NCBI GenBank assembly: GCA_037130335.1
Contig: JBAXTD010000001.1
Span: forward strand, 103,419-167,418
Reading direction: 5' to 3'
Source: a bacterium
GTDB lineage: Bacteria; Patescibacteriota; Minisyncoccia; Phycocordibacterales; UBA9973
Length of the DNA stretch: 64,000 nucleotides
Part shown: one piece after another, positions 31,693 to 33,314 of the stretch
Layout of the letters: each line of letters begins with the position of its first letter
How positions within the stretch are numbered: position 1 is the first letter of the stretch
Notes under the pieces: generated by a model
What the model saw: only the letters and a program-made list of their open reading frames with translations
Databases searched by the model: none
Told to the model about the DNA's origin: nothing
Position numbers and translations under genes: made by a program

Positions 31693-33314
31693 TAAGTAGA
31701 GTTTGATCCTAGCTCAGGATGAACGCTGGCGGCGTGGATAAGGCATGCAAGTCGAACGGATTCTTTTTTGAAAGAGTTGAGATTACATCAAGATGATAGA
31801 TAAAAAGAATTAGTGGCAGACGAGGTAGTAACACGTGGGTACGTCCCCTCTAGTCGCGAATAATCTATCGAAAGGTAGACTAATACGCGATGGTCTCGCG
31901 AGAGTAAAGATTTATCGCTAGAGGAACGGCCTGCGGAGTATCAGCTAGTTGGCGGTGTAATGGACCACCAAGGCTATGACGCTTAGGGGAGCTGAGAGGC
32001 TGACCCCCACCGATGGGACTGAGACACGGCCCATACACCTACGGGTGGCTGCAGTCGAGAATCTTCCACAATGGACGAAAGTCTGATGGAGCGACGCCGC
32101 GTGATTGATGAAGTCCTTCGGGACGTAAAGATCTTTTATGAGGGAAGAAGTTTATTGACGGTACCTCATGAATAAGGGGCTCCTAATCTCGTGCCAGCAG
32201 GAGCGGTAATACGAGAGCCCCGAGCGTTATCCGGAATTATTGGGCGTAAAGGGTGCGTAGGCGGTTGTGTTAGTCGAATGTTAAAGACCCGAGCTTAACT
32301 CGGGGAACGCGTTCGAAACGGCACGACTTAGAATGAAGGAGGGGTGTGTGGAACTCATGGTGTAGGGGTGAAATCCGTTGATATCATGGGGAACACCAAA
32401 AGCGAAAGCAGCACACTGGCCTTTTATTGACGCTGAGGCACGAAAGCGTGGGTAGCGAATGGGATTAGATACCCCAGTAGTCCACGCCCTAAACGATGTT
32501 CTCTTGTTTTCCGGAGTATCGACCCTCTGGGAGACGAAGCTAACGCGATAAGAGAACCGCCTGGGAAGTACGATCGCAAGATTAAAACTCAAAGGAATAG
32601 ACGGGGACTCGCACAAGCAGTGGATTATGTGGTTTAATTCGATGGTAACCGAAGAACCTCACCAGGGTTAGAAATCCAGTTGAAGAATACAGAAATGTAA
32701 ACGTCCGCAAGGACAATTGGACAGGTGATGCATGGCCGTCGTCAGCTCGTGGCTTGAGCTGTTCCCTTAAGTGGGGAAACGAGCGCAACCCTCGTCGTGT
32801 GTTACAAGTGTCACGCGAGACCGCCCAGTACTTTGCACATAAATGCAAAGTGACTGAGTGGAAGGTTACGAAGACGACAAACATGTTTTACAAAGTTTTT
32901 AGTAGAAGTAAGTATCGAAACTTTTCAAGTAAGTTATTCATTTGTGAATAAAGTACTGGGAGGAAGGAGAGGATGACGCCAGGTCAGCATGTCCCTTTGA
33001 TACCCTGGGCTACACACATAATACAATCGCGACTACAATAGGCTGCAATACCGTAAGGTGGAGCCAATCCTAAAAAGTCGCGCCAGTTCGGATTGAGGTC
33101 TGCAACTCGACCTCATGAAGCCGGAATTGCTAGTAATCGCAGGTCAGCAAACTGCGGTGAATACGTTCTCGAGTCTTGTACTCACCGCCCGTCAACTCAA
33201 GGGAGCCGGTAATACCCGAAATCTCCACATTCGTGGGGCCTACGGTAAGATCGGTGACAGGGAGTAAGTCGTAACAAGGCACGGGTAGCGGAAGCTGCTC
33301 GTGGATTACTTCAA
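31693..33314 (+). rRNA. rrs: 16S rRNA with a ~123-nt expansion insert, an atypical 3' tail, and no adjacent 23S.
   Basis: Starts agagtttgatcctagctcag. Conserved blocks present: ...gtgccagcaggagcggtaatac..., ...gattagataccccagtagtcc..., ...gcatggccgtcgtcagctcgtg..., ...gtcgtaacaagg.... An h45 GGAA tetraloop hairpin is present. The molecule ends GGAUUACUUC. Confidence 0.9.
32831..32953 (+). other. Expansion insert in the 16S (E. coli position ~1165 hairpin), with no ORF.
   Basis: The conserved ...gcccagtac / gtactgggaggaagg... helix is interrupted by 123 nt containing local hairpins (ctttgca/tgcaaag, ttattca/tgaataa). Confidence 0.7.

Follow-up and report, generated by a model that had tools for sequence, protein, structure and literature searches.

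Intervening sequences (IVSs) excised by RNase III are known from helices 25 and 45 of 23S rRNA in Salmonella, Campylobacter, Leptospira and Coxiella, and there are examples in the 16S rRNA of Helicobacter, Campylobacter and Caedibacter. Here we compare these and other described systems with an extended helix 40 (h40) in the 16S rRNA gene carried by a 64,000-nucleotide (nt) stretch of contig JBAXTD010000001.1, referred to below as the window. We know of no report of 16S h40 as an IVS site, and our literature search found none. Eukaryotic expansion segments include ES9S near helix 39 (h39). Expansions of other rRNAs in bacteria and archaea include 5S rRNA cases (PMC7812874). Classical IVSs occur in some strains, and even in some operons, but not in others, and horizontal transfer has been proposed for them. 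For the candidate phyla radiation (CPR), a residual class of short, non-intron rRNA insertions without an open reading frame (ORF), mostly under 200 bp, has been defined (Tsurumaki 2024, PMC11270868). As a class, the phenomenon reported here is already published; we found no description of an h40 whose tip is hypervariable while its base is conserved throughout a clade.

Judged from its sequence, the extended h40 can be assigned to this CPR class. It shares with the class a CPR host, at least 100 nt beyond the E. coli sequence, the lack of an intron signature and of an ORF, a size under 200 nt and a place atop a stem-loop where the rRNA is less conserved. The nearest 16S sequences among the matches listed come from metagenome-assembled genomes (MAGs) titled Nomurabacteria, Paceibacterota or Minisyncoccia (80–92% identical), and metagenome contigs carry closer relatives (94.5–99.4% identical); on these matches, the host is an ultra-small CPR bacterium, Nomurabacteria- or Paceibacteria-like. 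Two differences stand out. The published study sees no link between insertion position and host phylogeny, whereas a single clade carries the h40 extension, and the extension has a conserved, covarying base. The study shows ten frequent 16S sites (16IS1–10) in its figures.

An extended helix 40 shared by a clade

A complete bacterial small-subunit (SSU) rRNA gene without large intron-type insertions was identified with cmscan at 31691–33316 on the + strand (RF00177, 1360.7 bits, model positions 1–1533). In a restricted cmscan (32700–33100), 125 nt (32830–32954), bordered by CGCCCAGUA on one side and CUGGGAGG on the other, stand where the Rfam SSU model has 3, in the h40 hairpin. Comparison with the real E. 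coli rrs identified the element replaced as the h40 apical loop (G1166–A1170, 5 nt), giving at least 100 nt extra relative to E. coli K-12. The closing stem, CCCAGU/ACUGGG, corresponds to E. coli CCAGU/ACUGG (C1161–U1165/A1171–G1175) plus one additional C–G pair, and 121 nt (32832–32952) lie between the GUAC/GUAC arms. The E. coli numbering of the site was fixed from flanking anchors; in a global MAFFT alignment with E. coli, the shorter h39 of the window 16S causes the insert to appear as two separate gaps. The features of the extended h40 are as follows, all on the + strand.

32824–32829, +: universal h40 stem, 5' strand (CCCAGU; E. coli C1161–U1165 plus the extra C); cmscan alignment and E. 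coli rrs
32830–32954, +: insert in the widest sense, 125 nt, replacing the h40 apical loop; cmscan
32955–32960, +: universal h40 stem, 3' strand (ACUGGG), followed by the conserved AGGAAGG; cmscan alignment and E. coli rrs
32826–32845, +: basal extension, 5' strand, consisting of a 10-bp helix (32826–32835), a 2x2 internal loop (32836–32837) and an 8-bp helix (32838–32845); fold and covariation
32939–32958, +: basal extension, 3' strand (CAUUUGUG-AA-UAAAGUACUG), pairing with 32826–32845 and including the conserved G.U 32835/32949; fold, covariation and inverted repeat I3
32849–32938, +: lineage-specific distal part; fold, shuffle test and comparison with relatives
32830–32851, +: alternative local 5' hairpin, ACUUUGCA-CAUAAA-UGCAAAGU, competing with the basal rod; fold, with similar hairpins in 13 of 36 long relatives
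32934–32951, +: alternative local 3' hairpin, UUAUUCA-UUUG-UGAAUAA; fold

A first-pass annotation, made from the letters alone, had described an AT-rich insert at 32831–32953 that lacks an ORF, is too small to hold a homing endonuclease and is closed by the conserved helix that usually closes a short loop. Its borders are correct to within 1–2 nt, the non-homologous stretch being 32830–32954, and the rest of that description agrees with our results. The G+C content is 30.6% in the insert, compared with 50.6% in the rest of the 16S gene and 38.4% in the window. No ORF lies wholly inside the insert; two, of 65 amino acids (aa) on the + strand and 100 aa on the − strand, extend into it out of conserved parts of the 16S gene. 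Pfam gave no match for either at E ≤ 1, so that neither a homing-endonuclease domain nor any other known one was found. A look-up of identical products had no entry for the spurious ORF of 100 aa, for the 231-aa ORF next to it or for the 98%-identical homologue of the latter. Rfam intron families gave no match in the insert even at E ≤ 10, and its Rfam matches are at chance level only (E ≥ 0.48, 12–16 bits compared to gathering scores of 38–100), with nothing but SSU at the Rfam gathering threshold. No second copy of the insert is present in the 64-kb window.

The segment 32820–32965 folds at −47.1 kcal/mol (z = −6.97), and none of 200 shuffles folds as well. The minimum-energy fold is a single irregular rod coaxial with h40. 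It begins with the basal pairing (32826–32835/32949–32958, the loop 32836–32837/32947–32948 and 32838–32845/32939–32946) and continues through a weak helix (32849–32855/32932–32938) and a distal helix, P3 (32859–32867/32919–32927, plus 32869–32871/32915–32917), to an A-rich apical region with little pairing (32872–32914). The 'several local hairpins' of the earlier description stood up only in part: two are possible (32830–32851 and 32934–32951), but the minimum-energy fold is one rod (−36.3 kcal/mol versus −33.3 kcal/mol for the local-hairpin fold) whose base is supported by covariation. The basal long-range pairs keep probabilities of 0.85–0.97 in the ensemble, and the longest uninterrupted helix in the window's insert is only 10 bp.

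Relatives were found by scanning one genome per GTDB species for the 20-mer directly 3' of h40 (GGAGGAAGGAGAGGATGACG), a search independent of h40 length that returned at least 120 loci; h40 length was taken as the distance from a GAGACYGC anchor to the 20-mer pattern. Among the matches listed, about 47 16S genes have an h40 of 8–16 nt, including non-CPR bacteria together with SR1, Absconditabacteria, Uhrbacteria, Azambacteria, Roizmanbacteria and others, and about 60 species have one of 39–281 nt. None of the matches listed has a length of 17–38 nt, and the distribution is bimodal. By the same measure the window h40 is 134 nt, in the middle of the range of extended forms, and every extended version folds as a rod. 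The first-pass annotation had set an insertion against a variable region of normal length: within the clade the latter holds, as 134 nt is ordinary among lengths of 39–281 nt, but relative to bacteria at large (8–16 nt) the h40 stretch is an insertion. It is not a singular one, since variable-length h40 is a feature of the window's whole clade.

Among the matches listed, the loci with an extended h40 are those nearest to the window by 16S identity, and most are titled Nomurabacteria, Paceibacterota or Minisyncoccia. A neighbour-joining (NJ) tree of ~575 nt flanking h40 places the extended forms in one clade, with L117 (40 nt) as the sole exception and about four apparent reversions within the clade (L120, L065, L101 and L102); this tree is rough and carries no support values, and these counts of gain and loss are approximate. 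Sister taxa differ abruptly in h40 length (61 versus 142, 46 versus 130, 47 versus 114 and 55 versus 135 nt). Many MAG records titled 'uncultured Candidatus Saccharibacteria bacterium' also carry an extended h40 (L002, L019, L022, L055, L059, L063, L068, L087 and others); their 16S clusters with Nomurabacteria/Paceibacteria-like sequences, which casts doubt on either the record titles or the binning.

The base of the extension was analyzed by covariation, as the first-pass annotation had proposed for 16S sequences extended at this position. The first and last 17 nt of 58 distinct clade sequences were joined by an artificial GAAA spacer, giving a gapless alignment. The basal pairing was strongly supported: over its first 14 pairs, 90.5% of cells are standard pairs, compared with 35–47% when the 3' partner is slid by 1–3 columns, and compensatory changes on both sides occur in 12 of the 14. 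The covariation score was 0.724 versus 0.233 for shuffles, a value that none of 500 shuffles reached. Columns 11/29 hold G.U in 45 of the 58 sequences and G–C in 8, and a small internal loop follows, 10 bp up the stem. Between the window and the relative L123, the ungapped basal h40 arms are 97–100% identical. The basal ~18 bp are an ancestral, clade-wide, covarying feature, and therefore about 36–40 nt of the stretch first noted as an insert are ancestral to the clade and no recent insertion.

A fast-changing distal part

Close relatives with a homologous long h40 were obtained by a second metagenome scan with a degenerate pattern (10 loci) and by a synteny-based look-up; an exact 23-mer from the 5' local hairpin had no match in the metagenome scan. 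L133, on a 350-kb scaffold, and L136 come from ENA GROS21-1, and L123 from JGI Ga0214166. Their identity to the window and their h40 lengths, with those of L023 and L127, are listed below.

L133: 16S 99.4% identical; h40 134 nt, with one substitution
L136: 3' part of 16S 96.1% identical; h40 133 nt
L123: 16S 94.5% identical; h40 139 nt
L023: 16S 91.8% identical; h40 149 nt
L127: 16S 90% identical; h40 118 nt

Compared segment by segment, the window and L123 gave the following identities.

16S core: 95.7–98.3%
Variable region 1 (V1): 80%
Distal 87 nt of the extension (32849–32935): 56%
Flanking spacers: 48–58%

In the comparison with L133, the distal part is 98.9% identical, the spacers 89–94% and four flanking proteins 73–83%. 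As a test of constraint on the distal part, substitution rates thus gave a mixed result: it is spacer-like relative to L123 and better kept than the spacers relative to L133. Taken alone, 32852–32935 folds no better than shuffles (z = −0.86). The core of helix P3, GGAAGGUU/AACUUUUC (32860–32867/32919–32926), is kept through compensatory changes in L136, L123, L023 and L127; with the sequences compared directly, these include A-U to G-C and G.U to A-U or G-C, and both strands are 1 nt longer in L123. The A-rich apical ~43 nt differ even between near-identical 16S genes (L136 and the window). Overall, the distal ~85 nt are lineage-specific, young, AU-rich, weakly structured and mostly unconstrained.

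Many of the 36 long h40 versions (≥90 nt) hold copies of their own complement beside the basal strands. In 13 of the 36 the complement follows the 5' basal strand directly, and in 10 it directly precedes the 3' basal strand (z < −2 compared to shuffles in both cases). The window lineage has a 5' signature with z = −4.3. The signal of the 3' hairpin is less strong there, at z = −1.6, which places the window outside the 10. Basal strands flanked by their own complement were also seen in L124, L125, L080, L131, L013 and others, an arrangement that permits an alternative three-hairpin fold. Such flanking complements would be expected from tandem duplication of an ancestral hairpin, with material between the copies, and we infer that the tip may grow and shrink fast between related lineages, partly by duplicating that hairpin. 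Other relatives have plain rods with 20–28 uninterrupted bp. Perfect rods of 26–28 bp are found in L004, L007 and L022, among others. In L022, L017, L055, L095 and L037 there are two or three tandem near-perfect hairpins of 20–28 bp with a common loop, GUAUUUAUAU, which look like palindromic units multiplying inside the rRNA gene.

Known classes and the fate of the extension in RNA

In its anatomy the extension resembles an RNase III-type IVS: it stands in place of the apical loop of a conserved helix, a long double-stranded stem forms between its ends, and it is AU-rich, about 100–200 nt long and non-coding, with a tip that differs between close relatives. The likeness is one of anatomy only, excision and fragmentation being putative here. 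The base of the h40 extension is vertically inherited across a deep clade, in contrast to the sporadic presence of classical IVSs; on the rough NJ tree, the basal extension is clade-wide with about 4 apparent losses, and it is the distal part that is very labile between sisters. The extension likewise shares with expansion segments its growth at a hairpin tip in an insertion-tolerant region (E. coli 1153–1162, PMC2441807), a conserved base, a tip hypervariable in length and a composition that follows the genome. It is lineage-specific as well. What sets it apart is that retention in the mature ribosome, the property that defines that class, is only a possibility for the extended h40, and that other CPR insertions are reported as removed.

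The first-pass annotation had offered two fates, retention as an expansion segment or excision as an IVS, and this remains the right pair of options. We lean somewhat towards removal after transcription by a double-strand-specific RNase. The insert would be transcribed as part of pre-16S and, having no catalytic core, could not self-splice; an RNase III-type double-strand-specific endonuclease would cut in the basal rod, most likely removing the insert, and what is left of the stem, together with the folded 30S head, would keep the two parts of the 16S in contact. The insert itself would have no coding or mobility function. Removal is favored by the uninterrupted 20–28-bp duplexes that relatives carry at the same site, which would be ideal RNase III substrates and would not be expected to survive in a cell with RNase III. 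There are precedents in other CPR bacteria. Three small 16S insertions (157–214 nt) of a Parcubacterium were absent from transcript reads (Castelle 2017, PMC5220378), and CPR insertion sequences are described as 'removed from their transcripts' (Brown 2015, as quoted in citing papers). It has also been proposed that CPR may hold RNase III-type IVSs, with two 23S sites named (Tsurumaki 2024, PMC11270868).

Several observations weigh against removal, and most of them bear on the alternative that the whole 134-nt h40 is part of the mature 16S and forms a flexible rod on the solvent side of the 30S head, its conserved base a structural element and its tip drifting neutrally like eukaryotic expansion segments. 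We regard such retention as possible, though on the doubtful side. Removal would be an extrapolation from other CPR insertions, in different organisms and at different sites, and no RNase III gene was found in the 64-kb window (tblastn with approximate E. coli and B. subtilis Rnc queries). The basal extension occurs in nearly every member of the clade, including 39–50-nt versions for which there is little reason for excision, and lengths run from simple 39-nt hairpins up to 281 nt. This base is vertically inherited and covarying and keeps non-canonical features (the G.U in 45/58 sequences and the small internal loop 10 bp up), a pattern closer to that of a structural element kept in the rRNA than to that of a sporadic IVS. 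With helices broken every 8–10 bp and none longer than 10 bp, the window's rod would be a weaker RNase III substrate than those of its relatives. E. coli whose 16S carries extra sequence where h39 and h40 meet (1153–1162) grows like wild type (PMC2441807), and elongation through hairpin duplication at the tip is typical of expansion segments.

The distal part gives evidence in both directions. Its identity to L133 (98.9%, with spacers at 89–94%) indicates that it is not simply neutral in the short term, and helix P3 is kept through compensatory changes, both of which are consistent with retention; against retention, it diverges about as fast as the spacers relative to L123, and 32852–32935 alone has no structure above chance. 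Published transcript comparisons report small ORF-less 16S insertions of CPR bacteria and Parcubacteria missing from RNA, which also argues for removal. Base composition was dropped as a test of excision: the V1 hairpin of the same gene, assumed to be retained, has an even lower G+C content (26%), which leaves the AU-richness of the insert without weight in favor of removal.

A self-splicing intron of group I or II in degenerate or miniature form, or the remnant of a homing-endonuclease intron, would fit the host group and the gene: CPR 16S genes often carry group I/II introns, some with LAGLIDADG (for example at 16IS9, E. coli position 1400; PMC11270868), and relatives of the window lineage have 430–990-nt insertions near E. 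coli position 1400. The insert differs in having neither core nor ORF and in standing at a variable hairpin tip, not at a conserved functional site; LAGLIDADG-encoding insertion sequences occur only in highly conserved rRNA regions. At 121–125 nt it is far below the several hundred nt of a group I or II catalytic core, it has no Rfam intron match at E ≤ 10 and no Pfam domain, and its homologues form a plain rod, which together make an intron extremely improbable. Very unlikely, too, is a small mobile palindromic element resembling miniature inverted-repeat transposable elements (MITEs) or repetitive extragenic palindromic (REP) sequences and inserted into the h40 loop, and so is an artefact of assembly or chimera formation. 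The tandem near-perfect hairpins with a common loop motif in L022, L017, L055, L095 and L037 do resemble repeated palindromic units, but the window holds no other copy of the insert, and members of the clade have the base in common, in collinear arrangement. An artefact was rejected because the same architecture occurs in at least four independent assemblies (L133, L123, L023 and L127).

The long insertions of relatives are a separate observation. Seven loci (L096, L039, L027, L059, L092, L125 and L131) carry 430–990 nt at window-16S position 1495/1496, about E. coli 1400, a site known as the LAGLIDADG/group II-like hotspot 16IS9 (Tsurumaki 2024, PMC11270868), and L039 has an additional insertion of ~560 nt in the 5' half, at window-16S position 775/776. 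The window 16S has neither.

Two further features bracket the 16S gene.

31627–31655, +: leader arm of a 29-nt leader–trailer stem, a putative processing stem; inverted repeat I1, 83% complementary
33455–33483, +: trailer arm of the same stem; inverted repeat I1

In L123 the equivalent stem (264–292 and 2097–2125) is 90% complementary, although the spacers are only ~50% identical. Because the stem is conserved despite the diverged spacers, processing of pre-rRNA by a double-stranded RNA endonuclease is suggested, by analogy with E. coli, and the repeat is probably a pre-16S processing stem. We count this stem among the evidence that favors removal of the h40 insert. It emerged from an inverted-repeat search; RNAduplex applied to the whole leader and trailer gave the same energy as shuffles.

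Whatever its fate, the end of h40 is a hotspot in Nomurabacteria-like bacteria: above a conserved base, the tip lengthens and shortens from one sister species to the next. Excision of the rods would mean that nearly the whole clade makes fragmented 16S rRNA. With the rods kept, minimal-genome bacteria otherwise known for trimmed ribosomes would bear a large surface expansion, a genuine, fast-evolving 16S expansion segment of 40–280 nt on the 30S head. Bacteria would then have an equivalent of the eukaryotic expansion segments, and the clade would offer a natural series in which to follow how such segments evolve. Either fate would add to knowledge of CPR ribosome biogenesis.

The 16S gene and its surroundings

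The extension makes the gene ~120 nt longer between the commonly amplified V6 and V8 segments, and can interfere with the length filtering of amplicons, with alignments and with chimera checking in the clade, which also has a 2-nt variant inside the 515F primer site. In the window this site, in the 530 loop (32191–32212), reads GTGCCAGCAGGAGCGGTAATAC, with GA where CC is near-universal. The variant GGAGCGG was found in 34 fetched loci, 33 of which are on the Patescibacteria side of the NJ tree or are metagenome relatives, with 1 unchecked; the canonical 515F sequence is present in 14 other fetched loci, E. coli included. In the V1 hairpin (helix 6, 31755–31812), 32 nt take the place of 3 in the Rfam model; with a G+C content of only 26%, this hairpin is a second, smaller AU-rich elongation in the same 16S gene.

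Besides the 16S gene, cmscan identified an RNase P RNA in the window (36824–37234), whose gene lies 3.5 kb downstream of the 16S. No 23S or 5S gene (cmscan) and no tRNA gene (ARAGORN) was found in the 64-kb window, so that the 16S gene is unlinked to them within this distance. Upstream of the 16S, at a distance of 4 kb, is a gene for RNase J (25720–27804, − strand), with its beta-CASP and C-terminal domains.

Comparison of L133 (1115–2740 plus flanks) with window 29942–36732 showed 16S genes far more alike than their neighbours (99.4% versus 73–83% for the proteins); no genes were called inside the L133 16S. L136 shares the downstream gene of L133, but the 3' part of its 16S is 96.1% identical to the window, compared with 98.9% for L133. 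The contrast between 16S and flanks in these two loci suggests either very slow rRNA evolution or recombination or transfer of the rRNA gene between diverged genomes. A 2,882-nt scaffold (L135; ENA GROS21-1 scaffold_54515) holds a 228-aa gene and a DUF192 gene twice, in inverted orientation, and this palindromic contig is probably an assembly artefact.

Base composition changes along the window. At 42001–54000 the G+C content rises to 0.41–0.47, compared with 0.33–0.40 in the remainder, and the GC skew drops from about +0.1 to about zero, becoming negative at 42–44 kb. The AT skew is strongly negative at 42–48 kb.

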